Below, one piece after another: positions 1 through 42,869 of a stretch of 64,000 nt of DNA. The stretch comes from an uncultured candidate division WWE3 bacterium (lineage in GTDB: Bacteria > Patescibacteriota > WWE3 > UBA101185 > UBA10185): NCBI GenBank assembly GCA_903879985.1, contig CAIRNR010000004.1:32762-96761 (forward strand). Direction: 5' to 3'. Position numbers and translations under genes: made by a program. Every line of letters begins with the position of its first letter. The stretch's first letter is position 1. Under the pieces are notes generated by a model. That model saw nothing but the letters and a program-made list of their open reading frames with translations, was not told the origin of the DNA and searched no databases.

Positions 1-8
1 TTATTTAT

Positions 9-638
9 ATGAATGAACAAAAGAGATCAAATAATAGTACGATTTTTGGTTTAGTAAGTTTCGTAATTATTTCATTACTTGGATTTTTTGCTTTTAAGTC
101 TAATAAAAGTGCCGCCGAAGTAGGAACAAATACAGTTCCGGATACATCTCTACAGGTTACATCAACTCCTGAGTCTGTTTTTAGTGTATATCAAACTTCT
201 CCTTCTACCACACCAACAGATACTCCTACACCTAGTCCAACCGCTACGGTAACACCAATGCCTACCGCGAAAGCTACCTCAACTCCTACGCCAACTCCGA
301 CATTAACTCCCACATTAACTCCCACCAAAGCTTTATCTCCATACAAAGATGGAACATATGAAGCTATGGGTAACTATGGAGCCCCAGACGGTTCTCAGCA
401 AATTGATGTAACTTTACAACTCACAAGTGGGTTGATAACAAGTGCTTCTGTAAAGGCACTCTCTCAACAACATACATCTTTAAGATATCAGCAAGATTTT
501 ATTCAGAACTATAAAGATCAAGTAGTAGGTAAAAAAATTGCAGATCTGAATCTAAATACCGTTTCCGGTGCATCTTTGACCACAGACGGATTTAACTCAG
601 CTCTGAACACTATAAAAAATGAAGCAAATACACTTTGA
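9..638 (+). CDS. Membrane-anchored extracytoplasmic FMN-binding domain protein (RnfG/NqrC/PplA-like).
   Basis: Seen in sequence: an N-terminal TM helix, a Thr/Pro-rich linker, then a C-terminal domain with FMN_bind-like sequence (DGTYEAMGNYG...VTLQL) and a candidate flavinylation motif, TVSGASLTT, resembling the D-x-x-SGAT consensus. It overlaps the apbE start by 20 nt, which suggests translational coupling. Confidence 0.6.
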   Translation: MNEQKRSNNSTIFGLVSFVIISLLGFFAFKSNKSAAEVGTNTVPDTSLQVTSTPESVFSVYQTSPSTTPTDTPTPSPTATVTPMPTAKATSTPTPTPTLTPTLTPTKALSPYKDGTYEAMGNYGAPDGSQQIDVTLQLTSGLITSASVKALSQQHTSLRYQQDFIQNYKDQVVGKKIADLNLNTVSGASLTTDGFNSALNTIKNEANTL

Positions 639-1482
639 AGCCATAGGTACTCGTTGGCAAATTGACTCATTGGACAAACCAATTGAGCAGCAAGTAGTTG
701 ATGCAATTAAGCATCGTGTAGAAATTTTCGAAGACACATATTCAAGGTTCCGCAACGGTTCTTTCGTTGCTAATCTTGCAAGCGATGCCGGAACTTACAC
801 ATTACCTGAAGATGCAAAGCCGCTTTTTGATTTGTACTTTGAACTATATAAAATTACAAATAAAAAATTTACGCCTTTAATTGGGCAAACTCTAGAAGAA
901 TTGGGTTACGATAAAACATATTCTTTTAAAGCAAATATTCCTACAAAGCTAGATGATTTGAGTCAGGTAGCGAGTTATCAATATCCTAAATTAACAATCG
1001 CAAAGCCTGTACGCTTAGACTTTGGTGCCGCAGGAAAAGGTTACATCATAGATATAGTCTCAGACTTACTAAAGGAAAGTGGTTATACTGAGTTTATTGT
1101 GGATGCCGGTGGCGATATTGTTCACTATTCTAAAAGTGGCAAGGCAGTCCCTGTAGGATTAGAGAATCCAATAAATATTTCAGAAGCAGTTGGTGTGGCA
1201 ACAATAGATAACCGTAGTATTTGCGGTTCGTCGGGGAATCGCCGCAAGTGGAGTGTTTACACTCATATAATTGACCCTGAAACTTTAGCTTCGCCAAAGA
1301 ATATTTTGGCTACATGGGTTGTTGCAAAAAACACTATGCTGGCCGATGCGCTATCCACTTGTTTATTTTTAGCCGATCCAGCAAAACTTCAAGAGCATTA
1401 CGACTTTGAATACCTTATAATATATGAAGGTCAGAAAGTCTCCGTTTCCGATAATTTTCCGGCCGAACTTTTCTATGTTTAA
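619..1482 (+). CDS. apbE: ApbE-family FAD:protein FMN transferase (flavin transferase).
   Basis: The 287-aa product has the ApbE hallmark DFGAAGKGYIIDIV, matching the conserved D-x-G-[GA]-I-A-K-G-Y stretch, and the length and order expected of ApbE. It sits between an FMN_bind protein and an RnfD-like reductase. Confidence 0.75.
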   Translation: MKQIHFEAIGTRWQIDSLDKPIEQQVVDAIKHRVEIFEDTYSRFRNGSFVANLASDAGTYTLPEDAKPLFDLYFELYKITNKKFTPLIGQTLEELGYDKTYSFKANIPTKLDDLSQVASYQYPKLTIAKPVRLDFGAAGKGYIIDIVSDLLKESGYTEFIVDAGGDIVHYSKSGKAVPVGLENPINISEAVGVATIDNRSICGSSGNRRKWSVYTHIIDPETLASPKNILATWVVAKNTMLADALSTCLFLADPAKLQEHYDFEYLIIYEGQKVSVSDNFPAELFYV

Positions 1483-2986
1483 GAAATACATCAACGATAA
1501 TTCCATGTACAGCATTGTACTCAATGCTTTAGTTGCTATTATTCTTGGCGCATTTTTGTTCGCAACATTTGGTTGGGTGTCTCTAAACGCTTGGAATTTA
1601 TTGTTGTCGCTATTTGTGATTTTAAGTGTTGGATTTGTTTCCAATTACACTTTAGGAAAAATATTTAAAGTACACGTTAATCGTGAATCTTCTATTATTG
1701 CTTCGCTAGTTTTGTTTTGTATTTTGGTTCCTGCCAAATCACCGCGAGAACTTCTAATACTTGCGTTGGTTTCGCTATTGGCGCAGCTATCAAAATACGC
1801 ATTTGTTTGGAACAGAATACATATATTTAACCCAGCTGCGGTTGGCGCGTTTATGGCAACCTTAATTTTCAATTACCCTGTTACTTGGTGGGTAAGTAGC
1901 AAAGTTATGCTGCCTTTAGTTGCTTTAGCTGGTTTAACTGTTGTCATGAAAACCGGTAGAAAATATATGGTAGCTGTATTTTTTGTTGTTGCCTATTTAA
2001 CTCTAATTTTAAATTATGGCGATAGTATTCCATTTTTAAATCTGTCAAAACAATTTTTCACCGCATGGCCAACAGTTTTCTTTGCCACAATAATGTTAAC
2101 TGAACCTTTAACGATGCCAAATATCAAACGTTTTCAAATTGGTTACGCTGTTTTTATAGGTTTATTGTTTGGTATGACCTTTAATATCGGTCCAATTTTT
2201 TCAACTCCTGAGCTAGTTTTGCTAATAGGAAACTTGGCTGTATTCGTTCTTAAACCTAGATCACGCTATATTTTATCTCTAAAAGAAATCAAGACATTAA
2301 ACCCTGAAACAAAAGAATTTGTGTTTAATACAGATAAAAAAATAAATTTTAAAGCCGGTCAATATATGGAACTTGAAGTCCCTCATAAGCATGCGGATTC
2401 TCGTGGTTTACGCCGATACTTTACAATATCCTCGTCACCCCAACAAAAAGAAACAAGCTTTGGAATTAAATTTAACAAAGGTGGCAGTAGCTATAAAAAC
2501 GCACTAAGTAAAATTAAAGTTGGAGAAGAAATTTACGCTACACAGTTAGGCGGAGACTTTGTTTTAAAAAACAACTCGGATAAATCTTCTAACTATGTAT
2601 TTATTGCTGGTGGCGTAGGTATAACTCCGTTTATAAGTATGATCAGGAATTTAATCGATAAGCCTACAGGTGCAAATGTCACTTTGTTCTATACTGTGAG
2701 GCGTGTTAAAGATATTGCTTACAGAGAATTATTAGAATTAGCGGCAAGTTCCAAGGTTATTAATTTATTTTATGTTGTTACAGACGAGCAGTCACTTATT
2801 GACGATAAGAATTTTATCTATGGGACACTTTATCCGATCAAGATTATAAACAATGTTAAAAACGCACTTAGTGCTAATTACTTTATTTCAGGTCCACCTG
2901 CAATGGTTGGACATTTTGCTGCCAATCTAAAGAAAAACGGTGTTAGTGGAAATAAAATTCATACTGACTTTTTCCCAGGTTTTTAA
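1475..2986 (+). CDS. Fusion of an RnfD/NqrB-like polytopic membrane domain with a C-terminal FNR-type FAD/NAD(P)-binding reductase domain.
   Basis: The ORF track gives 1424..2986. An ATG at 1475 (MFKKY...) overlaps the apbE stop, giving ATGTTTAA coupling. The N-terminal part (about 280 aa) has roughly 8 TM helices and the RnfD/NqrB-type motif HIFNPAAVG. The C-terminal part carries RRYFTISS (the FAD R-x-Y-S/T motif) and FIAGGVGITPF (NAD(P) G-G-x-G-x-x-P), as in the ferredoxin-NADP reductase family. Confidence 0.65.
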   Translation: MFKKYINDNSMYSIVLNALVAIILGAFLFATFGWVSLNAWNLLLSLFVILSVGFVSNYTLGKIFKVHVNRESSIIASLVLFCILVPAKSPRELLILALVSLLAQLSKYAFVWNRIHIFNPAAVGAFMATLIFNYPVTWWVSSKVMLPLVALAGLTVVMKTGRKYMVAVFFVVAYLTLILNYGDSIPFLNLSKQFFTAWPTVFFATIMLTEPLTMPNIKRFQIGYAVFIGLLFGMTFNIGPIFSTPELVLLIGNLAVFVLKPRSRYILSLKEIKTLNPETKEFVFNTDKKINFKAGQYMELEVPHKHADSRGLRRYFTISSSPQQKETSFGIKFNKGGSSYKNALSKIKVGEEIYATQLGGDFVLKNNSDKSSNYVFIAGGVGITPFISMIRNLIDKPTGANVTLFYTVRRVKDIAYRELLELAASSKVINLFYVVTDEQSLIDDKNFIYGTLYPIKIINNVKNALSANYFISGPPAMVGHFAANLKKNGVSGNKIHTDFFPGF

Positions 2987-3017
2987 CCTATATCTCATTC
3001 CAACATAAATAGTATAA

Positions 3018-3461
3018 TTGCCTCAGATGAAAAATATAAAAATATATCAATATATAGCAGCATTTCAAGCCTTAATAGCAATGCTTGGAAGTTTATACTT
3101 TAGTGAAATCTTGCATTTTATTCCGTGTTCGTTGTGTTGGTACCAACGAATTTGTATGTATCCGTTAGTAGCACTCATTTCAGTAGGTATTATTTTTAAA
3201 GATAAGAACTTTTACAAATATGTTTTACCCCTAAGTATTATCGGTTGGGGTATATCTTTGTACCACAATCTTTTGTACTTTAATATTTTGCCAGAAACCG
3301 TGACAGGAAAATGTTTGATTGGTGTGTCGTGTACATTTAGATATGTAACTTTTTTTGGCTTCGTAACGATTCCTTTGCTTTCGTTTCTTGCCTTTACTGT
3401 TATAAATATTTGTATGGGAATATCCGTTAAGTTACAAAAATCTTCTGTTGAACAAATTTAA
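3018..3461 (+). CDS. bdbC: Disulfide bond formation protein B (BdbC-type DsbB).
   Basis: The N-terminal half is near-identical in pattern to Bacillus BdbC: MLGSLYFSEI..FIPCSLCWYQRICMYPL. It has four TM helices and a second Cys pair, CLIGVSC. Confidence 0.8.
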   Translation: MPQMKNIKIYQYIAAFQALIAMLGSLYFSEILHFIPCSLCWYQRICMYPLVALISVGIIFKDKNFYKYVLPLSIIGWGISLYHNLLYFNILPETVTGKCLIGVSCTFRYVTFFGFVTIPLLSFLAFTVINICMGISVKLQKSSVEQI

Positions 3462-3463
3462 TT

Positions 3464-4159
3464 ATGTTTAGCACTATAAACGCATACATCACAAATCTAA
3501 TCGAAGCTCATCCAATAGATCCGTTTACAGATTCGGTGGGTGCGTTTTTATCTCACGGCAGTATCTTTCTACCATTCTTATTTCTGTTAATAGAAGAAGC
3601 TGGTGTGCCGGTTCCAATCCCGGGAGATGCTGTTATAGCCTTTATCGGTTACCAAATTTCACGTGGAAATATTAGTTATGCTGTTTCATTTATTTTATTT
3701 TTGATATCTGTATTGGCTGGTTCTTCAATTTTGTATTACCTGTCATATCGTTATGGTGAAAAGTTAGTAGTTATGGTCGGAAAATATTTGCATGTTAACG
3801 AAAAGAAGTTAACTTTGGCACGATCTGCATTTAAAGAATTCGGACCTATTGCAATTATCTTTGGTCGACATATACCAGGGTTTAGAATTCCAATCACAAT
3901 ATTTGCTGGTTTGTCGGAAATAAAATATAAAACGTTTATCTTATGTGAATTTATTTCAGTTGTGCTTTGGATACCTATTTATCTTTCGATTGGCGAAAGA
4001 TTAGGACCAAAAACAGTAAAGTTATTTCACGCGCATCACTGGTATTTTGTTATTGCAGCAATACCTTTGTTATTTTTCTTGGGCTCGTATATATACGTTA
4101 AGGTTAAAGAATTTCGTCAAAAGAGAAAGCACCAAAGGGAAACTAAAGACTCTGATTAA
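3464..4159 (+). CDS. DedA/SNARE-associated family membrane protein.
   Basis: It carries the DedA signature region HGSIFLPFLFLLIEEAGVPVPIPGDAVIAFIGY and has multiple TM helices. Only 2 nt separate it from dsbB. Confidence 0.7.
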   Translation: MFSTINAYITNLIEAHPIDPFTDSVGAFLSHGSIFLPFLFLLIEEAGVPVPIPGDAVIAFIGYQISRGNISYAVSFILFLISVLAGSSILYYLSYRYGEKLVVMVGKYLHVNEKKLTLARSAFKEFGPIAIIFGRHIPGFRIPITIFAGLSEIKYKTFILCEFISVVLWIPIYLSIGERLGPKTVKLFHAHHWYFVIAAIPLLFFLGSYIYVKVKEFRQKRKHQRETKDSD

Positions 4160-5322
4160 TTTCCAAAAACATATAATTCTTCTTCAGCTCTTGTAACTCC
4201 TGTATATAGCCAACGTCGCCACTGATCGTCATCCATTTTTGAAAAACGTTCTTCAAATATAACAACTCTTTTTGCCTGACTACCTTGAGCTTTATGTACT
4301 GTTAAGGCGTATCCAAAGTCAAACAGATCTCCGTCTTTTGCTTTAAGTCTGTCTTTTGTAAAGTTAACTGCTTCTGTGGCGCCAAACTGTGGAGCGTATA
4401 TTTTTCCACTATAAATTGCTCCCCTATCGTCCATGTCGATTTCAGCTTGATACCACATATCATTTAGCGCAATTATGTCGACAATAGTACCAAGCATGCC
4501 GTTATAAATTCCTTTTTTGTGATTATTTCTTAGGCAAATAACACGGTCGCCTGCTTGTGGTTCCGGTGTTTCATAGCCGAGTGCGTTTCTTACAAATTGA
4601 TTTATTTTGTTTCGTGTTGAATTGTAACCGCAAAGTATTAGCGTGTCTGTGGTGTAGTTTTCTAAAAGTTCCGTACTTGCTTCTGAATAATCAAAATCTT
4701 CATGTGTATATTTAATAACTTTATCGCTATATTTTTTGCCTGGAATCTTTCCAGATTCTCTAGCGTGAATAGAAACTGTAATAATTGGATTACCTTTTGC
4801 TTGTCGATGAATAGTTTCAAGTTTAAGTTGTGGTTCTTGCATCAAATTAAAACTTCCTCGTATTGGTGGCAATTGTCCGTGATCTCCAACTGCAATAATT
4901 GGAATACGATACGATAATAAATCTTGCCAAATTTGTTCGTCAATCATTGAGGCCTCGTCCACAATTATTAGTTCAGATTCTATTTCAAGTTTTTTTGTCC
5001 AACCCGTAATAACTCCTTTAGAGCTTTCAATTGGATCATAAATAAGTCCGTGAATTGTGCTCACTGAATCTGTTGATCTTAGAGTTTTGTTAGCGGTAAG
5101 TTTTTGTTTTAAGTTTTGAGCGGCACGTCCGGTGTAACTGCAAAATGCAACTTTTAGTTTGTCTTTTTGAAGATCGTTAATTTCTTTTTTTATGTGTGCG
5201 ATTAGTGTTGTCTTTCCTGTTCCTGCATATCCGCCTAAAGTAATAAAAGGTGCGCGATCGGGCATGAGATACCAGTTTAAGATTTGTGCTGATGCTACTT
5301 TTTGATCTGGGGAAAGTTCCAT
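4156..5322 (-). CDS. RecD/Pif1/Dda-like superfamily 1 helicase (AAA_30 plus UvrD_C_2 type).
   Basis: Motifs seen: Walker A GGYAGTGKTT, Walker B/motif II IIVDEASMI, and the C-terminal LTVHKAQGSQAKRVV typical of RecD/TraA-type helicases. The start is possibly internal (MPDRAPF), since the annotated start overlaps the dus stop by 28 nt. Confidence 0.6.
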   Translation of the reverse strand: MELSPDQKVASAQILNWYLMPDRAPFITLGGYAGTGKTTLIAHIKKEINDLQKDKLKVAFCSYTGRAAQNLKQKLTANKTLRSTDSVSTIHGLIYDPIESSKGVITGWTKKLEIESELIIVDEASMIDEQIWQDLLSYRIPIIAVGDHGQLPPIRGSFNLMQEPQLKLETIHRQAKGNPIITVSIHARESGKIPGKKYSDKVIKYTHEDFDYSEASTELLENYTTDTLILCGYNSTRNKINQFVRNALGYETPEPQAGDRVICLRNNHKKGIYNGMLGTIVDIIALNDMWYQAEIDMDDRGAIYSGKIYAPQFGATEAVNFTKDRLKAKDGDLFDFGYALTVHKAQGSQAKRVVIFEERFSKMDDDQWRRWLYTGVTRAEEELYVFGN

Positions 5323-9309: not shown

Positions 9310-10641
9310 CTAGTTTGCAACACCCTTAGTTTTTGGAATAGCCAAAAGCATTTTTGCTTGGGGATACCAACTGCCGTCAGATTTTTGCCATGCGAATCCC
9401 ATGGCGCACGGATCCGAGCTTCTAAATATAAATGGTGTAATGGCAACAATTCTCGGATCGTTTAGCCAGTAGTTTGTATAAGCATCCTTAAATCGGTCGG
9501 AGGTTGTGTCAGCGGACAATAAACCGGCTTGAACATATTGGCTACAACTAGTCTGACCTTCTTTATGAAGCCAACCTGTTTCAGTAATAAATATTGGCAA
9601 CGCACTTAAGCTGAAATTGGCTTTAAGTAAATTCATTTCCCACGCGTAGTTATTTATTGTATCGCGGGCGGTGTAGCCAAAGGGTAAGTTGTTTATGTCG
9701 CCACTAAAGTTTGGTTGTGGATATGAGTGTGTGGACCAGCCGTCAATTTTTTTAAATATTCCGGGTACAGCGTCATTCATTTTTATAAGATAAGTATCTT
9801 CACTCATGTAGCGATCTTGAGTTCGTGCGCTGCTGTTAAAAGCTCCTGGCATAATAAAAAAGTCTTTGCTTTTAGCTTTAAAAGATTTAATAGCTTTGTC
9901 CAAAGCTTGGGCGTATTCGTCGGGAGCTATTCTTTGGCACCAATAGTCTTTAGCATTCATTTCATTAAACAAAGCTATATATCTGTGTTTACTAGGCCAT
10001 TTAACACTGTTTAAAGTTGAGGCCAATGCGTCGAAATCCATTTTGTCTGGTTTGCATACGCTGTCATTTGAAATTTGAATAATTGGAATTAGATGCGCCG
10101 AGGCAGCTGCATCAAACATACCTTGCCAAGATTTTTGATTGCGATCATTAATACTCATTGTTAATAAAACGTATCCCCAATCGCCGCCGTTACTGTTTAC
10201 TAATTTTGCTGCTGCTTTTATATCGTCCGATATATTGTGAACATACATGCCGACTTTATTGTTAGCGGTTCCTCTTCCGTAAAATACTTGGTCTGATGCG
10301 TCGGTTACTGCATCTGCCGTTGGTGTTGGTGTAGGCGTAGAAGTTGGTGTTGGCGTAGGTGTGGGTGTTGCGGAGGGAGACGTAGTCCCATTTGGAGTTT
10401 GGTCTGCTGGTGCTGCGTTTACAATAATTTTGGTTGGAGAATTCTCAGCGGAGTCGTTCGCGCCTAAAACATTTGCAGGTTCTGACATTGTATTTTGTGT
10501 TGGCATTAATACCGCGAGTTTTTGCTTATGAAAACTTGTATACGCGTATGTTCCTATAACCGCGATTACAAGTAAAGTTATGGAAGAAAAAAAGATTTTC
10601 GAAAAAATTGAGCCTTGAGAATGTTGTCTGATTTTTGGCAT
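9310..10641 (-). CDS. Membrane-anchored secreted glycoside hydrolase-like protein (clan GH-A-like TIM barrel; inference).
   Basis: It has an N-terminal TM helix, a TPTPTPTPTST linker, and IFITETGW resembling the GH-A nucleophile motif (I/V-T-E-x-G). Confidence 0.45.
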   Translation of the reverse strand: MPKIRQHSQGSIFSKIFFSSITLLVIAVIGTYAYTSFHKQKLAVLMPTQNTMSEPANVLGANDSAENSPTKIIVNAAPADQTPNGTTSPSATPTPTPTPTSTPTPTPTADAVTDASDQVFYGRGTANNKVGMYVHNISDDIKAAAKLVNSNGGDWGYVLLTMSINDRNQKSWQGMFDAAASAHLIPIIQISNDSVCKPDKMDFDALASTLNSVKWPSKHRYIALFNEMNAKDYWCQRIAPDEYAQALDKAIKSFKAKSKDFFIMPGAFNSSARTQDRYMSEDTYLIKMNDAVPGIFKKIDGWSTHSYPQPNFSGDINNLPFGYTARDTINNYAWEMNLLKANFSLSALPIFITETGWLHKEGQTSCSQYVQAGLLSADTTSDRFKDAYTNYWLNDPRIVAITPFIFRSSDPCAMGFAWQKSDGSWYPQAKMLLAIPKTKGVAN

Positions 10642-12618: not shown

Positions 12619-13395
12619 TTACTGAAAATAGACCAATTGTACGATCATAAGCGCAATGGTCACGATTACCAATGCTAAACCTTTTTTGCTTACGTGTACC
12701 TCGTTAAGTTCTGTGCGTGTTTTGTGTGCACCAAACCCTCGAACATCTAGAGCGATAGCTATTGTATCAACGCTCCGCATTTCTGTCGCTAAGAGCGCGG
12801 CCAATGTTGTCTTGATTCTTTCAAACCCTTTTTTGGATTTTCTAAGCGTTTGTACGTCATCAATGGCTTGAAGATCATATTGATACGTTGGAATCATACG
12901 TAGCGCTAGGTAGGCAATCCGTGAAAATCTATATGGAATGCCTACTTTTATCATCGACATTTCGAGTTCTTGAGGCGAGGTGCTAACGGAATACGCAATC
13001 GTGGATGCGACAAGCCCAAAAGTTCTTAGGACTATAGCGATTCCAACTTCCATACCTGTGTATGAAAGATTTAAAAACCAGATTGAAATCCCTTCCCCCG
13101 GTCTGGCCCAACCTTGGTATACAATCATTCCCCAACCTGAAATAGCCATAATTAAAGTAATTTTCAGGTACCGCCAAATATCAACGCGTGCGGCAAGAAA
13201 CGAAAAAATGGTGACTCCCAAAGTAACTGGCAACACTGTTTTAATGTCTCTCAGTGTGTATAACCAGCCAGCTATAATACAAATCCATACGAATTTCATT
13301 AGTGGATCTGTTCGGTTAAAAAGGGATCTGCCCGGTTTATATGCTAGAAGCATTTTGCACCTCCAGTTGGCTTGGACTTGTTGGTAGATTTGCAC
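12619..13395 (-). CDS. ECF transporter transmembrane (T) component (EcfT/CbiQ/YkoC-like).
   Basis: It has 5-6 TM helices and the CbiQ-type motif IALDVRGFG (A-x-x-x-R-G). It overlaps the upstream ATPase gene. Confidence 0.7.
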   Translation of the reverse strand: MQIYQQVQANWRCKMLLAYKPGRSLFNRTDPLMKFVWICIIAGWLYTLRDIKTVLPVTLGVTIFSFLAARVDIWRYLKITLIMAISGWGMIVYQGWARPGEGISIWFLNLSYTGMEVGIAIVLRTFGLVASTIAYSVSTSPQELEMSMIKVGIPYRFSRIAYLALRMIPTYQYDLQAIDDVQTLRKSKKGFERIKTTLAALLATEMRSVDTIAIALDVRGFGAHKTRTELNEVHVSKKGLALVIVTIALMIVQLVYFQ

Positions 13396-14941
13396 TTAGG
13401 TAGTGCATTGCTAAAGCTACCGTGGGATTTATGCTTGCATATCCCAAATCTGAATATAAGCGAGAGGTCAAATCCGAGGTGTGTCCGCTAAATTGGATAG
13501 CCCCGTTTTTTAACACAATCACTTCTTGCACGAAACTTCCCATTATCCTGGGGTCGTGCGTGATGTAGATCGAGGCGCCGGTAAAGGTGCTCAAGATCTC
13601 TTCGAAAAACTGAACTTGTTGTGCATCCAGTCCTGCGGTGGGTTCGTCGAGAATCAACAAATCCATAGGGCGTACTGTTGCAATCGCCAATGAAAGTCGT
13701 CGTTGTTCTCCACCTGATAGTTGAAAGGGCGAGGTGTCTTTATACTTAGACAGATCAAATCTTTCAAGCCACATTGCCACTTCTCTTGCCGAACATGTAG
13801 TGCCGTAAGCAATTTCATCGGCTACAGTCGTAGTGATAAAACCCAAACCAGGTTTTTGAGGCATCATTGCGATGTTACTGGCCAAAGTTTGAATTTTACC
13901 TTTAGATTGCTTTCGTAAGCCCGCAGCAAGTCGCGCCAATGTAGACTTACCGGATCCGTTGTGTCCTATTATTGCCACACGAACTCCGTTTTTAATAACT
14001 GCGGTTATATCCTTTAAGGCCAAAGTGCCGTCTGGATAACGATAGAAAACGTCATTGAGGTTCACGATATCTTTACCAGTACCGTTATTGTGTCTTTTAA
14101 CTGGCATCACTGTAACGTTAGCAGGCAAAAAAATCTTGCCTTTAACGATTCGAGTCAAAATATGTAGACCTGCGAGTTTTCTTTGGATCTGCATGACATG
14201 TGGTACTTCCACTTTGGCTTTTTTCATCGCCGTAAAACATTTTGGAAGTTTCTCGATATCAGTATCGATTGTCACTTTTCCGGAATCTAGCACGATTAAG
14301 CGTGTAGCTAGTTCAAGAAAAGGATCTAGCCAGTGCGTTGCCACTATTACGATGTCTACGGATTTTTTAATCTCCTTTAAGGCATCAATTACATCAGCAA
14401 CACCTTCTGGGTCTATATTGGCCAGCGGTTCGTCCAGAATCAGAATTTTCGGTCTGAGTGCGAGCAACGACGCTATTGCCAATCTTTGTAGCTGTCCACC
14501 CGACAATGTATCTACAGAAACATTTTCCAAATTTTCAAGGTGCATTAACTTAAGGGCATCTCTGCTTCGGCTTATTACCTCTTTTTTAGGGTAAAGAAAG
14601 TTACATAATGCTGCCGTTGCTTCTTCGATTACAGTTAAGTTACAAACCTGGCTGCCGGGATCTTGCAAAACAAAACCTACTCTGCCGGCAAGACCCTTAA
14701 TTCCCAAATTCTTTACCGATTTACCTCCAAAGGTAATTTCTCCTGTTATCTTTCCACCATAGTATTCGTATAAAATTCCCAAAATGGCTTGGAGCAATGT
14801 TGATTTGCCTCCGCCGTTTGGACCAGATAAGAGTACAAACTCGCCCGAAGATATTTGAATATCAACATTTGTTAAAGCTCTTACTCCGTTGATATACGAG
14901 TATGAAAGGTTGTTCACTGAAAGTTGCATAGTACCCTCCAA
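13337..14941 (-). CDS. Fused duplicated ECF/ABC ATPase (EcfA-EcfA', YkoD-like).
   Basis: One 534-aa polypeptide holds two complete ABC cassettes: Walker A GPNGGGKST and GHNGSGKST, signatures LSGGQLQRLAIA and LSGGEQRRLSLA, and Walker B ILILDEP and LLILDEP. Confidence 0.8.
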   Translation of the reverse strand: MEGTMQLSVNNLSYSYINGVRALTNVDIQISSGEFVLLSGPNGGGKSTLLQAILGILYEYYGGKITGEITFGGKSVKNLGIKGLAGRVGFVLQDPGSQVCNLTVIEEATAALCNFLYPKKEVISRSRDALKLMHLENLENVSVDTLSGGQLQRLAIASLLALRPKILILDEPLANIDPEGVADVIDALKEIKKSVDIVIVATHWLDPFLELATRLIVLDSGKVTIDTDIEKLPKCFTAMKKAKVEVPHVMQIQRKLAGLHILTRIVKGKIFLPANVTVMPVKRHNNGTGKDIVNLNDVFYRYPDGTLALKDITAVIKNGVRVAIIGHNGSGKSTLARLAAGLRKQSKGKIQTLASNIAMMPQKPGLGFITTTVADEIAYGTTCSAREVAMWLERFDLSKYKDTSPFQLSGGEQRRLSLAIATVRPMDLLILDEPTAGLDAQQVQFFEEILSTFTGASIYITHDPRIMGSFVQEVIVLKNGAIQFSGHTSDLTSRLYSDLGYASINPTVALAMHYLSANLPTSPSQLEVQNASSI

Positions 14942-14951
14942 TACAAAAGAA

Positions 14952-14996
14952 GGCCCGTCATTTTTTGTGTAAAAAAACGACGGGCCAGTTTAGACA
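14952..14996 (-). terminator. Strong intra-operon hairpin (terminator or attenuator) between the S-component gene and the ATPase gene.
   Basis: GGCCCGTC-ATTTTTT-GTGT-AAAAAAA-GACGGGCC forms a roughly 15-bp stem. It is followed on the minus strand by a T-rich tract. Confidence 0.5.
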
Positions 14997-15027
14997 CCGA
15001 ATATATAACTAACTGCTCCAGGCCTTC

Positions 15028-15627
15028 TTAATCAGGTACAAAGCCGGTTGCAGGAGTGGTGGCTTGAGATGCGGTTAATTTGCCCCACCCAGTTTTTGCA
15101 ATCGGAATCAATGCCCAGAAGACCATGACGCTGGTGAAGATCTTTCCGATGAAGCCCGGCCCGTAATATCCCAATAGTCCAGGAAGGGTTAACGGCACTG
15201 CATCGCGGTATCCATCCGGTAACCATCCCAGGGCCCATGCGATTAAGGATCCCAAAATCACCGTGCCCATATTGATATTACCGCGGAACCACCAGAAGGC
15301 GAGATCAACGCCAAGGCCTTCAATTCCGTCGGCAAGGATTACCCAAAGGCCGATCGGTGAGCCCAGCATCAACTCGACAACGCCTGACAGAAGTTTAACA
15401 ATCGTTGCAGCCCCAGGTTTCCTGATCCGCAGGATGATTAAGAAGCTGACGACGTTGAATCCAAAACTGCCAAAGAGGTCTTTCACGGCTGGGATAATTT
15501 GTGCGCCATAAATAAACTGCGCCCAACCCCACTGCCACAGACCGGCAACCACAACCATTCCCGCCATTTCGACAAAATCGCGCGTGGTAAAACCACCCCA
15601 TTTAGGTCGTGCCATTTTCGTTTCCAT
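15028..15627 (-). CDS. ECF transporter substrate-specific (S) component-like membrane protein (YkoE-like position).
   Basis: The ORF track start is 15735. A GGAGCAAGG RBS lies 7 nt before the ATG at 15627 (METKMARPKW). The protein has 5-6 TM helices and is Trp/Gly-rich. Gene order S then AA' then T matches ykoEDC-type ECF loci. It is GC-elevated. Confidence 0.45.
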   Translation of the reverse strand: METKMARPKWGGFTTRDFVEMAGMVVVAGLWQWGWAQFIYGAQIIPAVKDLFGSFGFNVVSFLIILRIRKPGAATIVKLLSGVVELMLGSPIGLWVILADGIEGLGVDLAFWWFRGNINMGTVILGSLIAWALGWLPDGYRDAVPLTLPGLLGYYGPGFIGKIFTSVMVFWALIPIAKTGWGKLTASQATTPATGFVPD

Positions 15628-15783
15628 AACCTTGCTCCTTTTTTCAAACGTATTGATATTTCTGATGTGATTTTTGACGAGTGAAAACTCGGTGTCTTCT
15701 AAATGACTTTCTTCTTCTGCGCGCCAATGTAACACACTTTATTTTGATATACAAGCATATAGTACTTAGACTATACTTTTAAA

Positions 15784-16039: not shown

Positions 16040-16369
16040 ATGTTCGAAGTTTACGATAAAAAAATTAAGCAACTTATAAACTCAAAATCAAAAGAAACTT
16101 CTTGGGCAGATGTATTAAGTACTCACCGCGAGATGATTTCCCTAATTCAGCACGAACGGCTTATTCATTTATTGGTTATGATTTTTGTGGGTATTGTAAT
16201 GGCAATGTCTTGCTTTGCTACTATCCTTTCAAGTGCGCCAAGCTTAATTATTTTGGACCTACCTTTGATGGTTCTTTTTATTGCTTATATCTTTCATTAC
16301 AGATTTTTAGAAAACACCACTCAAGCCTGGTATACGTATATTGAAAAAATTAAGGAGAAAATTAACTAA
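16040..16369 (+). CDS. Small membrane protein (109 aa, 2 TM).
   Basis: Its stop overlaps the mscL start in an ATGTTAA-type junction. Confidence 0.35.
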   Translation: MFEVYDKKIKQLINSKSKETSWADVLSTHREMISLIQHERLIHLLVMIFVGIVMAMSCFATILSSAPSLIILDLPLMVLFIAYIFHYRFLENTTQAWYTYIEKIKEKIN

Positions 16370-16776
16370 TGTTAAAAGGATTCAGGGATTTTATTATGAA
16401 AGGTAATGTAGTTGATATGGCAGTTGGAGTTGTGATTGGTGTCTCTTTTGGTGCTGTAGTTACTGCAATGGTTAAAGATTTAATTACACCACTCATCGGA
16501 GTATTCGGTGGAACTCCAGATTTTTCCGGTGTTTCATTTACATTGAATAATAGTAAGTTTTATGTCGGTGATTTTTTGAATACTTTAATTTCATTTCTTT
16601 TGCTTTCGGCTGTAATTTATTTTGCCGTAATACTTCCAATGAATAGACTAACGAAAAAAATGAAGGGAGATGTGAAACCTGAGCCAACTGAAAAGCAATG
16701 TGCCGAATGTTTAAGCATGATTCCCATTAAGGCTATGCGCTGTAAGTTTTGTACTGCTCTGCAGGAAAGTAACTAA
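16369..16776 (+). CDS. mscL: Large-conductance mechanosensitive channel MscL with a C-terminal CxxC...CxxC extension.
   Basis: The N-terminus MLKGFRDFIMKGNVVDMAVGVVIGVSFGAVV matches the MscL consensus, and there are two TM helices. The C-terminus is CAECLSMIPIKAMRCKFC. Confidence 0.8.
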   Translation: MLKGFRDFIMKGNVVDMAVGVVIGVSFGAVVTAMVKDLITPLIGVFGGTPDFSGVSFTLNNSKFYVGDFLNTLISFLLLSAVIYFAVILPMNRLTKKMKGDVKPEPTEKQCAECLSMIPIKAMRCKFCTALQESN

Positions 16777-16779
16777 TAA

Positions 16780-17466
16780 ATGAGCTTGGTTCATAAAACA
16801 AAAGTATCATGGCTTCGTGATTTTTTTCTTGGTGGTCAGGATGGCTTAGTAAATGTTTTGGGAATTGTACTTGGCCTTTTTGCCGCCGGTGGTGAATCTC
16901 ATATCATAATAGTAGCTGGAATGGCTGCCGCCTTTGCTGAGGCCGTTTCCATGGGAGCCGTTGCTTACACCTCTACCCTAGCCCAAAAAGATTTTTACGA
17001 TAAACAAAAACAAAACGAAAAAGCGCATATCGAAAAATTTCCTGAAGAAGAAAAACAAGAATTATATAAAATTTATTCTGCAAAAGGCTTTGAGGGAAAA
17101 CTTTTGGACGATATCGTGGATGAGATAGTTTCTGATAAAGAAGTTTGGGTAAATATAATGATGGAAGAGGAATTGGATTTATCAAAGGTTGATACTTCAA
17201 GCATTGTAAATAGCGCGTTAGTGGTTGGACTTTCAGCGTTGGTTGGTTCGTTTGTTCCGATTTTACCTTTGTTTTTTCTAGCCAGAACAGATGCTTTGAT
17301 AGCAAGTATTGTTGTTTCTGCATTGGCACTTTTTGCGGCCGGTGTTTATGAGGCAAAATCTTACGTGGGTAATTGGTTGCACAAAGGTTTGCAGATGGTA
17401 GCAATTGGTATGGGTGCAGCTCTTGTTGGATTTTTGGTCGGACGAGTTTTTAACGTAAATCCCTAA
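16780..17466 (+). CDS. VIT1/CCC1 (DUF125) family Fe/Mn transporter-like membrane protein.
   Basis: The N-terminal GGQDGLVNVLGIVLG pattern, the central cytoplasmic acidic helix region and the C-terminal TM bundle are typical of VIT-family proteins. Confidence 0.55.
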   Translation: MSLVHKTKVSWLRDFFLGGQDGLVNVLGIVLGLFAAGGESHIIIVAGMAAAFAEAVSMGAVAYTSTLAQKDFYDKQKQNEKAHIEKFPEEEKQELYKIYSAKGFEGKLLDDIVDEIVSDKEVWVNIMMEEELDLSKVDTSSIVNSALVVGLSALVGSFVPILPLFFLARTDALIASIVVSALALFAAGVYEAKSYVGNWLHKGLQMVAIGMGAALVGFLVGRVFNVNP

Positions 17467-20928: not shown

Positions 20929-23900
20929 TTACCACCACAACAAAACTCGCCACATTTCATTACCTGTATGTCTCATAACGTAAAGGTATCTTAAATGATC
21001 CTTTGGATAAGATGATGCGGTAGGATCAGCGTATTCTATAATTTCCATTCTATTACCAATAACTGCTGTACCCATACCATAAGGAACCGTTGCGGAAGGC
21101 ATTACAAGGTTAGTAACAATATCGTAATAGTTAATTCTACCAGTAGCCTCTTTTGTAAAATAAATTCTGTCGACGCCGTCATAACTGTACATAGAACCTG
21201 TTGTTAATGTTTCCATATTTGGGAACTGAGTGATCGTTTCCCAAACTCCATATGGAATATCGTATCTGTTAAGTTCGGTTGCCGCACCACCTCTAAAAGA
21301 ATACATAAATCTTGCCTTCATATTAGAAGTGCTTGGATCATATAATCTATCTAAATGTAAGCCAGTACCACGAGGTGTTATTGGATAAATAGCGTAAACA
21401 TCTGCGCCTGCTGTGGCACCAATGGTAAAACCAAAAGAAGTACCAAAAGCGGACATTTGTGTCTGACTGTTCTGTCCTGCGGCTACGACAGCTTGCTCAG
21501 CTGGGTTTGCGGTTCCTGGTACCTGACCTGCAAGCATTCGTGCTCTGTGACCTGCAAAGTATGCGTATGGCCAGTTCTGTGTGTAATCAATAATTGCTGT
21601 TGTGGAACCTCCTGTAGCAACTCCGTAACAATCTAATATTTCGTAAACTGTTGTTGCATCTGTCGTGGCGCTTAATGCTGTAGCTAATGTAAGCGTTGTT
21701 GCGGTGTTAGACAAAATCGCTGCCTGACTTCCCGCCCCTGCCCCAGCGACAATTTGTACAAGTCTTGCGTCGGTTCCTTTTATGGTTCTTATAACGGAAC
21801 CTGATTCTGTAGTTAAACCAGACGCGACTGTTAAAGTACCTGCCGCGGAGGTTACAACTTGGAACCAGCTATTGTTACCACTTTGCGAAAAGCCACTTAA
21901 TTTAATCCACATACCTACTGTGAATACTGCTAAACGGCTTGAAGAGTCTGTAATAGTTGTTGAGTTTGATACCTGAATTGTTGCATCACTAGCTGACACT
22001 ATAGTTTGTAATGTTTGGTTAAACCAGTTTACCGGCCAGTTTTTTGTTGCGTCGATAATTGTTTTAGCATCGCCGGCTGTTGATGTACAAACACCCCAAG
22101 TTCCTTGATTTGGTGTTCCTGAAGTGGCTCCTGGTGGAAAATACGAAGTTTTAGGCAAGGTTGAGTCAACTCCAAAGGGTTTCATATCTTGAATCATATA
22201 GCGTGTTGTACCATCAACTGGAGAGGCGCCTAAAACTAGAGTGCCCATTGTAAATGTTGTGGAGGTGTTTGCCGAAATTCTTCGTACATAGCCACCTGCA
22301 CCAATTTGTATGGATACAAGTTTGCCTACAAGTTCACTTGGTGCCCAATTTTTTGTAGCATCAACTATGATTAATGTAGTTTGTGCTTGGGTTACGGTTG
22401 CTGTACCTGTGGCTGTTGCTCCAACTGAAAGTCTAAAAATTAATGCTGTATCGTAACCGACAACTGGCCAAGCGCCGTTAATAGCTGCCGGTGCAAGAGC
22501 GCCCGCAACGGTTACAGAGTCACCAATTAAAAAGTTTGTAGAAAGAATAGTTGTAACCGCGGCAACGTTTGTAGTTGCGCCTGATGCCCACGAAACGGTA
22601 CATCCCGTGCCTCCTGCTGGTAAAACTGTTGTAACAATTGTTGATCCGGTAGTGTTATACGCGGTTCCCGCGTTTTCTAAAGCTATACTTGTTACAGCAC
22701 CAACTGAATCAACTCCTGTAACTCTATACTTTGCGGTAGTACCACCACCTCCGTTAACCGTCAAAATATTTCCAATAAAATAACCACTGCCTCCTGCGGC
22801 AATTGTAACCGGTTGTGTGCCTCCTGTATTACCTACTAATCCTCCGGCGGAAACTACAACACCTCCTGCAGCCACACCGTGTGCTCTGTCTCCAGTTTGA
22901 CCTGGTGCTGATAAAGAAATAGCTCTACAAATACCCCAATCTAATTGTGTTCCCGTTGTCCAATGATCTGCATCGATTCCGTATTGTTGCATGGCTGAAT
23001 GTGTAGCATACGTAGACCATATCTTGTCGGTGTCTGGCCATACCTCGTAGCCATCTCCATTCGCGGGATTAGAAAGCCAACTTTTTCCTATCGTAAAAGA
23101 TGTGGCATCGTTAGCTATGATTGTTCGATATTGGCCAATACTCGCTGCGGTGGTTGATGCGGTTATGCGTAATTGCATTCCTGCATATTGATTAATAACC
23201 ATATTAGCACCGGAGTTTACTAATCTTCTGGACGTTCCACTTGTTGCTGTAACGCCTGTTATTAATGCTGATGGACCGTCGTGTACTATTTCTGTAGCCA
23301 AATCAGTAGCTGCAGCATTTAAAAAGTTATACTGCACCGATTTAACGTGCCAGTAATCTGAAATTACATCATAATAGGAAAGTGAAAGCCATGGAGCTGC
23401 TGCAGAATTTAACAACCAAATTCCGCCACCTTTAACAACGAATCTTGATGTGGCATCAGGTGTAACGTCCCAAGCAACGGAGACTGTAATCATGGAAGCT
23501 TCAATATAGTAGTCACTACCTGCACCGGGTGCGGTCCATGGAGGATTTCCCCAAGGATCAATGGCTAAATACGCTGGGTCTGCTACGGTAAGAACGGTTG
23601 AAGTATTATATAAAATACGTCTAACCTGAGATTGACCAGTGCCTAACACAACTCTAACCTGATAATCCCGCCATTGATTTGGTTTCCATAGTCTATAAAT
23701 AGGTGGATTAACTGTTGCATCTGTTAACGATGTCGTCGCGCCCGCAGTTGCTACCCCGTAGTCATACGTTATAGGTTCACCAACATCTAATATTGTTCTT
23801 TCCTGACCTGCACCTGTTCCTGATAAGATTTTTATTTTTAATCCCTTTAAGGCTTTTCCATTTAAGGCAGCTGCATAAAAAGTTGTAGTAGTTGGTGCAG

Positions 23901-24177
23901 GTGAAGCTAAAACTCTTGAGTAATATCCGACGTCGTTGGAATAGCGTAACGGTGCATCTACAGCCGCGGTTACAGGTCCGTTAGCTAATTGGTGCCATGT
24001 GTCGTTGATTGTGTCATAACGATACATCGTAGCTGCAGTATAGTAATACATGTATCTGGGTGCTCCAGGAGGAGAACATGTAGCACAGATGTTTGTATTG
24101 GTAGCGACTGGTGCTAATTTACACCATTCCCATACCGGTTGATCAACTAAATTTTTTAAATTTAATGTAATAGCCAT
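20929..24177 (-). CDS. Giant (1082 aa) Thr/Gly/Ala/Val-rich fibrous protein, possibly a fibre or adhesin; no N-terminal signal peptide.
   Basis: It is one uninterrupted ORF with internal repeats (IIDATKNWP, IVDATKNWAP, IIDYTQNWPY) and beta-rich composition. It is co-oriented with two upstream small genes. Confidence 0.5.
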   Translation of the reverse strand: MAITLNLKNLVDQPVWEWCKLAPVATNTNICATCSPPGAPRYMYYYTAATMYRYDTINDTWHQLANGPVTAAVDAPLRYSNDVGYYSRVLASPAPTTTTFYAAALNGKALKGLKIKILSGTGAGQERTILDVGEPITYDYGVATAGATTSLTDATVNPPIYRLWKPNQWRDYQVRVVLGTGQSQVRRILYNTSTVLTVADPAYLAIDPWGNPPWTAPGAGSDYYIEASMITVSVAWDVTPDATSRFVVKGGGIWLLNSAAAPWLSLSYYDVISDYWHVKSVQYNFLNAAATDLATEIVHDGPSALITGVTATSGTSRRLVNSGANMVINQYAGMQLRITASTTAASIGQYRTIIANDATSFTIGKSWLSNPANGDGYEVWPDTDKIWSTYATHSAMQQYGIDADHWTTGTQLDWGICRAISLSAPGQTGDRAHGVAAGGVVVSAGGLVGNTGGTQPVTIAAGGSGYFIGNILTVNGGGGTTAKYRVTGVDSVGAVTSIALENAGTAYNTTGSTIVTTVLPAGGTGCTVSWASGATTNVAAVTTILSTNFLIGDSVTVAGALAPAAINGAWPVVGYDTALIFRLSVGATATGTATVTQAQTTLIIVDATKNWAPSELVGKLVSIQIGAGGYVRRISANTSTTFTMGTLVLGASPVDGTTRYMIQDMKPFGVDSTLPKTSYFPPGATSGTPNQGTWGVCTSTAGDAKTIIDATKNWPVNWFNQTLQTIVSASDATIQVSNSTTITDSSSRLAVFTVGMWIKLSGFSQSGNNSWFQVVTSAAGTLTVASGLTTESGSVIRTIKGTDARLVQIVAGAGAGSQAAILSNTATTLTLATALSATTDATTVYEILDCYGVATGGSTTAIIDYTQNWPYAYFAGHRARMLAGQVPGTANPAEQAVVAAGQNSQTQMSAFGTSFGFTIGATAGADVYAIYPITPRGTGLHLDRLYDPSTSNMKARFMYSFRGGAATELNRYDIPYGVWETITQFPNMETLTTGSMYSYDGVDRIYFTKEATGRINYYDIVTNLVMPSATVPYGMGTAVIGNRMEIIEYADPTASSYPKDHLRYLYVMRHTGNEMWRVLLWW

Positions 24178-24957: not shown

Positions 24958-25668
24958 ATGGATGATAAAAACGAGACGTACGAAATTTTCATAAAAGAGT
25001 TTATGGTACTTCGTCAAAAATTGATAAGTGTTTTTATTTTATTCTTCGCCGGATCGGCTATAGGATTACTTTTTAATCAACAAATATTAAAATTGGCACT
25101 CAAAATATTTAATTTCAGTGGTGTTAACATGGTTTTAACTTCTCCAGGGCAAATGATTGAAATTTCTATTTACACTGCTGTGTTAACAGGCCTGTTTTTT
25201 GCCACTCCTGTGCTAATATATCAAATTTACATGTATATTCGACCTGCATTTAAAGATAAGGAATATCACTTAATTATGTCTTTTGTTCCTTTGAGTCTTG
25301 TTCTTTTTATTTTGGGAGGAGCTTTTGGTGTTTGGATTAATCAATTAATGCTTGCCCTTTTTTCTAAATTTTCCAGCGACTTTAGACTGAATAATATTTG
25401 GGATTTACAACGATTTTTCTCTCAAGTAATTATGACAGCAATTTTGACCGGGCTTTTATTCCAAATGCCTTTGTTTTTATCTGCGCTAATAAGATTCAGA
25501 TTGTTGTCACGACAGCTTTTAGTGCAAAAAAGAAAAGTCGCATATGTTATCTTGTTAATAATCGCAGTTTTGCTGCCACCCACTGACATTTTGTCCTTAC
25601 TTATTCTTACAATTCCACTTATACTATTATATGAATTAACTTTGTTTTTAAATGTTGGACAACCTTAA
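24958..25668 (+). CDS. tatC: Sec-independent protein translocase TatC.
   Basis: It has 6 TM helices and TatC-type motifs, LTSPGQ and the YMYIRPAFKDKEY loop (compare F-I-x-P-G-L-Y-x-x-E). Confidence 0.7.
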   Translation: MDDKNETYEIFIKEFMVLRQKLISVFILFFAGSAIGLLFNQQILKLALKIFNFSGVNMVLTSPGQMIEISIYTAVLTGLFFATPVLIYQIYMYIRPAFKDKEYHLIMSFVPLSLVLFILGGAFGVWINQLMLALFSKFSSDFRLNNIWDLQRFFSQVIMTAILTGLLFQMPLFLSALIRFRLLSRQLLVQKRKVAYVILLIIAVLLPPTDILSLLILTIPLILLYELTLFLNVGQP

Positions 25669-42660: not shown

Positions 42661-42869
42661 CTCATTTTCCTTTCTTTTGTAGTCATGGGTTTTCAAAGTT
42701 CCGAATTTGTCTTACCTGAAACGTTTAGTCCTCTTCAATAATGCCTCCTTTTTATCTCTTTATGTTTGATTATTCACGGGATATTATCATGCTATAGGGC
42801 CTTAGTCAAAAAAAAGAAAGGCACCAGAGATGGTATAAACCACGCAATGGTGCCTTTTAATAACTCTAG

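Follow-up and report, generated by a model that had tools for sequence, protein, structure and literature searches.

A three-gene flavinylation module with a fused membrane reductase

We analyzed a 64-kb stretch of DNA from an uncultured candidate division WWE3 bacterium (contig CAIRNR010000004.1), called the window below, and in particular a flavin-related gene cluster at its left end. Window 1-4200 contains five closely packed open reading frames (ORFs) on the + strand, with intergenic gaps of at most 40 nt. All five had been listed in an initial annotation of this DNA, and we find each of them in place and on that strand. The first three overlap and occupy window 9-2986 (+). They encode a protein with an FMN_bind domain (FMN, flavin mononucleotide), an FAD:protein FMN transferase of the ApbE family (FAD, flavin adenine dinucleotide), and a single polypeptide in which an RnfD-like membrane domain is fused to an FNR-type reductase. 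We consider it probable that window 9-2986 represents a complete NQR/RNF-like system, that is, a two-subunit transmembrane flavin wire together with its maturation enzyme. This reading builds on the identities of the domains, the fold of the membrane domain, the loss of its flavinylation loop, the topology as read from charge bias and the conservation of the three genes as a unit, all of which we demonstrate here.

The fusion ORF extends over window 1424-2986 and would code for 520 amino acids (aa). The family alignment and database gene calls set the start at 1475, which gives a protein of 503 aa and an overlap of 8 nt with apbE. The translation contains the strings HIFNPAAVG, RRYFTISS and GGVGITPF quoted in the initial annotation. 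Its reductase part is readily recognized by Pfam, with FAD_binding_6 (PF00970, 8e-6) and NAD_binding_1 (PF00175, 2.4e-11) spanning residues 285-497 of the 520-aa ORF, and has many matches to NCBIfam models and to PDB entries of the FNR family.

The membrane domain (N-terminal 265 residues) was identified by profile and fold comparisons. A phmmer search of the PDB with the full fusion returned FNR-family chains only, and a profile of the N-terminal family was required to reach RnfD. This profile, made from 26 N-terminal domains, matches Azotobacter RnfD (8ahx_D, E = 0.0029). Comparison with E. coli RsxD by hhalign gave a probability of 90-92% (E 7e-7 at 92%), and RsxD used as a phmmer query matches six members of the fusion family directly. 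The AlphaFold2 model of fusion residues 1-265 is of high confidence (predicted local distance difference test, pLDDT, 91.1; predicted template modeling score, pTM, 0.89), as is that of the full-length fusion (pLDDT 89.9). In a Foldseek comparison of the domain with the PDB, the first 15 places all go to chains of RnfD or NqrB (E 6e-6 to 7.5e-4, query TM-score, TMq, 0.60-0.73), and urea channels rank far below them in the list. The fusion belongs to a large family of proteins of ~505 aa. Among its 120 best homologues, PF03116 is on record for 75 and absent from the record for 45; in both homologue records that we inspected the match is labelled 'faint'. Since the profile, hhalign, phmmer and model-fold evidence agree, we regard the RnfD/NqrB assignment as sound. 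The fusion of an RnfD/NqrB-like domain to an FNR domain, as proposed in the initial annotation, is thus borne out by fold and profiles for the membrane half and by PF00970 and PF00175 for the reductase half.

The hhalign alignment is nearly global (domain residues 3-265 versus RsxD 9-348) and is interrupted by a single gap of ~79 residues. This gap removes the RsxD loop that carries SQAT187, the covalent-FMN site. In neither the window protein nor the related loci described below does the membrane domain contain an [ST]G[AS][ST] motif, the one exception being a non-conserved SGST at residue 200 in locus L084. Conserved positions of the domain include ES (71-72), K107, H116-x-FNP (118-120), WW (138-139) and MLTEPxT (207-213). 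The helices of the model correspond to ten membrane crossings, with 16 Lys and Arg residues on the inside loops versus 3 on the outside loops. This bias indicates an N-in, C-in orientation, by which the FNR domain would be cytoplasmic and the shortened loop (130-148) would face outward.

The FMN_bind protein consists of a hydrophobic helix (residues 8-32, the sole one at the N-terminus), a Pro/Thr-rich linker (~40-110) and a C-terminal domain. With Pfam FMN_bind, the 209-aa protein as a whole reaches 20.3 bits, short of the 22-bit cutoff, and the domain taken alone reaches 22.3 bits. A profile built from 20 members of the FMN_bind family matches the solved FMN-binding domain 8p2a_A with E = 1.1e-17. 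The sequence VSGAS (residues 185-189) aligns onto VSGAT of 8p2a_A, and a [ST]G[AS][ST] motif is found near the C-terminus at the equivalent position in 20 of 25 family members, the window's own included. S189 is hence the predicted site of phosphoester-linked FMN. The mean net charge of the anchor flanks in 20 family members is +2.0 on the N-terminal and -0.45 on the C-terminal side, and a Pro/Thr/Ser-rich linker follows the anchor in the family alignment. Based on these flank charges and the linker, we predict that the anchor is oriented N-in and that the domain lies outside. The description of a membrane-tethered extracytoplasmic FMN_bind protein with an SGAS motif therefore holds for domain and motif, and for outward topology as a prediction; charge bias agrees with the initial annotation in placing the FMN_bind domain outside and the FNR domain inside. 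BLASTP and hhalign comparisons of E. coli RsxG with the FMN_bind protein and its family revealed no significant similarity past the motif, and we therefore do not call this subunit RnfG/NqrC-like by sequence. A jackhmmer match of the FMN_bind type to a 443-aa cellulase-like ORF (9310-10641) lacks the motif and was dismissed as an artefact of low complexity or of the anchor.

To find related loci, we scanned species-representative genomes and obtained ~28 full-length fusion homologues, to which four closer metagenomic homologues were added; the resulting 32 loci exclude the window's own contig. They belong to Patescibacteria (Nomura-, Ames-, Levyi-, Adler- and Saccharibacteria, Peribacteraceae), Chloroflexota (Ktedonospora, Anaerolineales), Actinomycetota and Alphaproteobacteria. 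An apbE gene adjoins the fusion gene in 23 of the 32 loci and a gene for an anchored FMN_bind protein in 24, 19 of which encode a C-terminal [ST]G[AS][ST]. Two subtypes can be told apart across these loci (L002-L029, L082-L085). In one, ApbE is short (~246 aa, 'MGMPITVEV' start) and the FMN_bind protein contains 'VDIVSGAT'; in the other, ApbE is longer (~287 aa, 'FEAIGT' start) and the FMN_bind protein contains 'VSG(A/S)SLT'. The longer-ApbE subtype is the one found in the window, in Saccharibacteria and, among Actinomycetota, in L028 and L029.

Phmmer searches with E. coli RsxA, RsxB, RsxC, RsxE and RsxG found no match in the 64-kb window and 9 kb upstream of it, and none of these E. coli-type subunits occurs within 6 kb of the fusion gene in any related locus. 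Within this range the other Rnf subunits are missing, in agreement with the initial annotation. With the three domain assignments holding, the topology in agreement and other Rnf subunits not found nearby, its description of a minimal stand-alone Rnf/Nqr-like conduit stands. No conserved terminal oxidoreductase was seen near the module across the 32 loci, and a 126-aa ORF that precedes the module on the longer contig offers nothing suggestive. Only two kinds of additional gene recur, two-component regulators (6-7 loci) and ABC (ATP-binding cassette) genes of the MacB type (5-7 loci). A histidine kinase together with a response regulator lies within 6 kb in L002, L008, L014, L017, L019, L022 and L085, and none was seen beside the window copy. 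The recurring two-component pair could mean that the NQR/RNF-like system is regulated.

Table 1. Module genes, their domains and the two downstream neighbours (window positions)
Feature	Position	Strand	Basis
FMN_bind subunit, 209 aa	9..638	+	Pfam, family profile versus 8p2a_A, charge bias of anchor
Flavinylation-type motif S186-G-A-S189	564..575	+	Alignment with VSGAT of 8p2a_A
ApbE-family FAD:protein FMN transferase, 287 aa	619..1482	+	Pfam ApbE 3e-39, PDB ApbE/Ftp matches
RnfD/NqrB-fold membrane domain, fusion residues 1-265	1475..2269	+	AlphaFold2, Foldseek, hhalign
FNR-type FAD/NAD(P)H reductase domain of the fusion, including stop codon	2270..2986	+	PF00970, PF00175
DsbB-family disulfide oxidoreductase, non-conserved neighbour	3027..3461	+	PF02600, NF002849
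DedA/VTT-domain membrane protein (UptA-like), non-conserved neighbour	3464..4159	+	Pfam/NCBIfam

Relation to known flavin-based systems and a putative electron path

Flavinylation-associated clusters in which an NqrB/RnfD-like N-terminal domain is fused to PF00175 have been published as 'NQR/RNF-like systems' (Meheust 2021, eLife, PMC8238504). Their operational definition asks for a PF03116-homologous N-terminus and a cytosolic C-terminal PF00175 on the same polypeptide, with ApbE or FMN_bind within five genes and at least one of these bearing a signal peptide; 127 such clusters were counted in 2021 (PMC8238504). A two-subunit complex has been modelled for Ktedonobacter racemifer, with a membrane domain that is devoid of a flavinylation site (Huang 2024, mSystems, PMC11334425). 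In the window, PF00175 is C-terminal, the C-terminus of the preceding membrane domain is predicted inside, and ApbE and FMN_bind are encoded directly upstream, FMN_bind with an N-terminal signal-anchor. Homology of the PF03116 type is evident from fold, profile and family members, while a literal Pfam match is absent. The flavinylated Thr is missing from the membrane domain, as in the modelled complex. Components that define canonical Rnf and Nqr (RnfA/E or NqrD/E, RnfB, RnfC or NqrA/F, and a covalent-FMN site on the D/B subunit) were not found, the search for subunits having covered the window with 9 kb upstream and, in the related loci, the 6 kb around the fusion gene. By its sequence, the FMN_bind subunit qualifies as a probable flavinylation substrate (fold plus a [ST]GA[ST]-type motif). 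ApbE has the catalytic domain of the extracytoplasmic lipoprotein-type ApbE/Ftp enzymes but neither their signal peptide nor a lipobox. The module is a diverged member of an already published, bioinformatically defined class, and neither the conduit reading nor the loss of the FMN loop is new.

The window module shares with the published systems the gene set and order, the lost flavinylated Thr and the taxa, including bacteria of the candidate phyla radiation (CPR); a Ktedonobacteria homologue (L013, 34% identity) belongs to the family of the window fusion. It differs in that its fusion protein is too diverged for PF03116, and also by the ~287-aa ApbE subtype, the long Pro/Thr linker and the DsbB and DedA genes downstream. 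With Rnf (8ahx, 9eri, 7zc6; E. coli RsxCDG) the membrane domain has in common the fold and the FNPA and LT(D/E)P motifs, and the arrangement resembles the RnfC-RnfD-RnfG branch, where an outward-facing covalent-FMN subunit takes electrons from the membrane domain. In contrast to Rnf, the window system is without RnfA/E/B, has an FNR domain for RnfC, carries a deletion of the ~79-aa FMN loop and uses an FMN_bind protein that is not RsxG-like beyond the motif; nor is ion pumping implied for it. Na+-NQR (7xk3, 8a1t) shares the NqrB fold (TMq 0.60-0.68), and the FNR part is distantly similar to the FAD/NAD module of NqrF, but the module has no 2Fe-2S domain, NqrD/E, NqrA or covalent FMN on the B-like domain, and no quinone site is shown. 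Flavin-based extracellular electron transfer in Listeria (FmnB/PplA/Ndh2/EetAB) passes through the quinone pool by way of NDH-2 and EetA/B and employs a lipoprotein ApbE outside the cell. Similar to it are an ApbE-family enzyme and a tethered, outward flavinylated protein as electron exit; unlike in Listeria, the donor in the window would be the fused FNR domain, and ApbE has no export signal.

The scheme that follows, with its cofactors, its acceptor and the direction in which electrons move, is our inference. As its family membership suggests, the cytoplasmic FNR domain would have its FAD reduced by NAD(P)H. Electrons would then cross the membrane through the fused RnfD/NqrB-fold domain, whose own covalent-FMN loop is lost. 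For the modelled complex, the membrane domain has been suggested to have a pocket for non-covalent flavin that is sampled by the FMN bound covalently to the outer subunit (PMC11334425). Following that proposal, the carrier in the window protein would presumably be a flavin in the non-covalent pocket retained by NqrB/RnfD. From here electrons would reach FMN held covalently on Ser189 of the outward-facing, tethered FMN_bind subunit, which would hand them to an extracytoplasmic acceptor. ApbE would install this FMN. In net terms, such a scheme would be equivalent to that half of Rnf which comprises RnfC, RnfD and RnfG, RnfC being replaced by an FNR module. A weaker possibility is that the conserved membrane-embedded acidic residues E71 and E210 keep an ion path of the RnfD/NqrB type, which would make the module a minimal redox-driven ion pump.

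The module may be the simplest protein wire known to lead from NAD(P)H in the cytoplasm to the outside of the cell. In CPR bacteria, which are without respiratory chains, it bears on extracellular redox processes, e.g. iron reduction or redox exchange with a host. Because PF03116 misses the window protein and is not on record for 45 of the 120 best homologues, Pfam-based counts of this system such as the 127 clusters are probably underestimates.

The location of ApbE and alternative explanations

The 287-aa ApbE matches Pfam ApbE (PF02424, E = 3e-39) and also solved FAD:protein FMN transferases (ApbE/Ftp in the PDB), the aligned region including the AGKGY and HIIDP stretches. Its gene overlaps that of the FMN_bind protein by 20 nt. 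The protein (MKQIHFEAIGT...) has no signal peptide, no lipobox and no hydrophobic segment anywhere along its length, and the core FEAIGT begins at about residue 6. Because it lacks a signal peptide, we predict the module ApbE to be cytoplasmic. The same absence is seen in all 23 related clusters that have an ApbE, including those of Gram-negative Alphaproteobacteria. Moreover, none of the 120 closest ApbE homologues (261-307 aa) has an N-terminal hydrophobic stretch, and their core motif starts at a median position of residue 8. As a control, E. coli ApbE (Ftp) shows a lipoprotein signal and ~48 extra N-terminal residues. The initial annotation was thus right in naming an ApbE; its statement that this enzyme would load the FMN_bind protein has to be qualified, given an outward-facing substrate and an enzyme with no export signal. 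This point seems to be unreported, as neither PMC8238504 nor PMC11334425 discusses it, and the signal-less ApbE represents a concrete, testable gap in the published model. Possible resolutions are flavinylation before Sec export, export of ApbE by an unrecognised route, or an error in the FMN_bind topology.

The mismatch bears directly on how the module is read. One alternative is that flavinylation is cytoplasmic, the FMN_bind domain being either modified before export or kept inside, where it would shuttle between the FNR domain and the RnfD-like domain. If the latter were the case, the accepted topology of the NQR/RNF-like system would be wrong. In favor of this alternative, the ApbEs of the window, the 23 clusters and the 120 homologues all start directly at the catalytic core, in comparison with the lipoprotein signal of the E. 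coli enzyme, and there is a precedent in Klebsiella, where a cytoplasmic ApbE has been reported; such ApbEs serve cytoplasmic substrates (PMC12052999). A cytoplasmic FMN_bind domain is, however, at odds with the anchor, which obeys the positive-inside rule for N-in, C-out, and with the Pro/Thr-rich linker, which is typical of exported tethers. As for export after flavinylation, the N-termini of the FMN_bind family carry KK or KR and not the twin-arginine motif of twin-arginine translocation (Tat), and we know of no precedent for the export of a pre-flavinylated chain. Tat export was accordingly rejected as a general explanation. The window does contain a tatC homologue (24958-25668, +, Pfam 1.7e-39), from which it follows that the organism has a Tat route. 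On balance we judge cytoplasmic flavinylation of this module unlikely. A broader version, in which maturation throughout the Nqr/Rnf-like family relies on a cytoplasmic ApbE, with FMN attached before the crossing or with an FMN_bind domain that is not extracytoplasmic, strikes us as possible, if doubtful. If true, it would contradict the prevailing view that proteins are flavinylated by ApbE after their export, outside the cytoplasm, and it would remove the need for FAD export, suiting cells as reduced as CPR bacteria.

Further alternatives concern the identity of the conduit and its partner. The three genes might be dispersed subunits of a conventional multi-subunit Rnf or Nqr encoded elsewhere, a notion to which the RnfD/NqrB fold and a genome not visible outside the window lend some room. 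Yet the RnfD-like domain is fused to FNR and is without the FMN loop that conventional complexes need, the FMN_bind protein resembles stand-alone domains (8p2a, 3o6u) rather than RsxG, and a self-contained unit recurs in ~30 genomes with RnfA/B/C/E/G not found within 6 kb or in the 64-kb window, so that we consider this explanation extremely unlikely. A heme-based transmembrane reductase of the NOX (NADPH oxidase) or ferric-reductase type, in place of a flavin wire, is hinted at by a weak match of the fusion to PF08030 (ferric reductase NAD-binding) and by the bacterial FR-type proteins 8qq7 and 8qt6 among the best PDB sequence matches of the FNR part. The membrane fold, on the other hand, matches only RnfD/NqrB and, weakly, urea channels, not the six-helix ferric-reductase domain, and its single invariant His (H116) is too few for bis-His heme ligation; the probability of such a reductase is close to negligible. 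Finally, the initial annotation had raised, as speculation, a redox coupling of the conduit to DsbB. In a CPR cell that has no quinones, the conduit might for example take over from the quinone pool in reoxidising DsbB. The five genes on one strand with gaps of up to 40 nt, the lack of a predicted terminator between fusion gene and dsbB (2986 to 3027), and the lack of quinone-related genes among the scanned window ORFs are compatible with such a coupling. Nevertheless, DsbB and DedA adjoin the module in none of the 32 other loci, the four closest homologues with their Pfam-annotated neighbours included, and a perfect TATAAT consensus -10 box (3013-3018) lies 8 nt ahead of the dsbB ATG, within the 40 nt that separate this ATG from the fusion gene, which suggests that dsbB may have a promoter of its own. 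DsbB requires an acceptor more oxidising than its own cysteines. The conduit is fed by NAD(P)H and would deliver electrons, thus acting as a reductant where DsbB needs an oxidant, and transfer from DsbB via FMN to NAD(P)+ would be uphill. A literature search for DsbB and quinone in Patescibacteria found nothing. We consider the coupling very unlikely, and the DsbB link, which was the main original appeal of the finding, does not hold.

Several points weigh against reading the module as a complete NQR/RNF-like system. The membrane domain has no Pfam match even at E <= 10, and a protein with no PF03116 match falls outside the literal Pfam-based definition of the system, its homology being one of profile and fold. 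Among the Pfam families expected in the initial annotation, ApbE, FAD_binding_6 and NAD_binding_1 were recovered, FMN_bind remained below its cutoff on the whole protein, and nothing of the RnfD/NqrB type was matched in the membrane half. The predicted cytoplasmic location of ApbE, set against a sole motif-bearing substrate that is predicted to face outward, leaves the maturation step unexplained. Our view of the genome is confined to the 64-kb window. Lastly, we found no experimental study of the cofactor, activity or acceptor of any NQR/RNF-like system, the published descriptions being bioinformatic, from comparative genomics and AlphaFold models.

Neighbouring genes and the remainder of the window

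The gene for DsbB, labelled BdbC-type in the initial annotation, and that for DedA follow the module on the same strand, as noted there. The ORF at 3018-3461 is assigned to DsbB by PF02600 (6.9e-11) and by the NCBIfam model NF002849 (named simply 'disulfide oxidoreductase', with no subtype; 127.4 bits versus a cutoff of 124). Its start is probably the ATG at 3027, and the translation contains the cysteine pairs C37xxC40 and C99/C105. The adjacency of DsbB and DedA is specific to the window's lineage and is not a conserved part of the module.

Six NQR/RNF-like clusters are reported to contain iron transporters of the VIT1 family, and iron reduction was put forward as a possible role (PMC8238504). 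The window encodes a VIT1-family protein (16780-17466, +, Pfam 1e-58) directly after MscL (16369-16776, +). It is located ~14 kb downstream of the module, and since the two are not adjacent, it gives only a hint of a link to iron.

An ECF-type (energy-coupling factor) set is encoded on the - strand at 12619-15735. It comprises CbiQ/EcfT (12619-13395), a duplicated ABC ATPase (13337-14941) and a membrane component of the ABC_cobalt type (15028-15735). In the flavinylation system of Listeria, flavins are moved by modules of the ECF type.

Rfam searches of the full 64 kb yielded no family at gathering score, and no tRNA, rRNA, riboswitch or other RNA gene was detected. Three large - strand ORFs have no Pfam match at E <= 1e-5: 20929-24177 (1082 aa), 37249-39039 (596 aa) and 41347-42696 (449 aa). 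In a further ORF, of 1316 aa (25869-29819, +), Pfam recognizes a C-terminal SH3_3 domain only.

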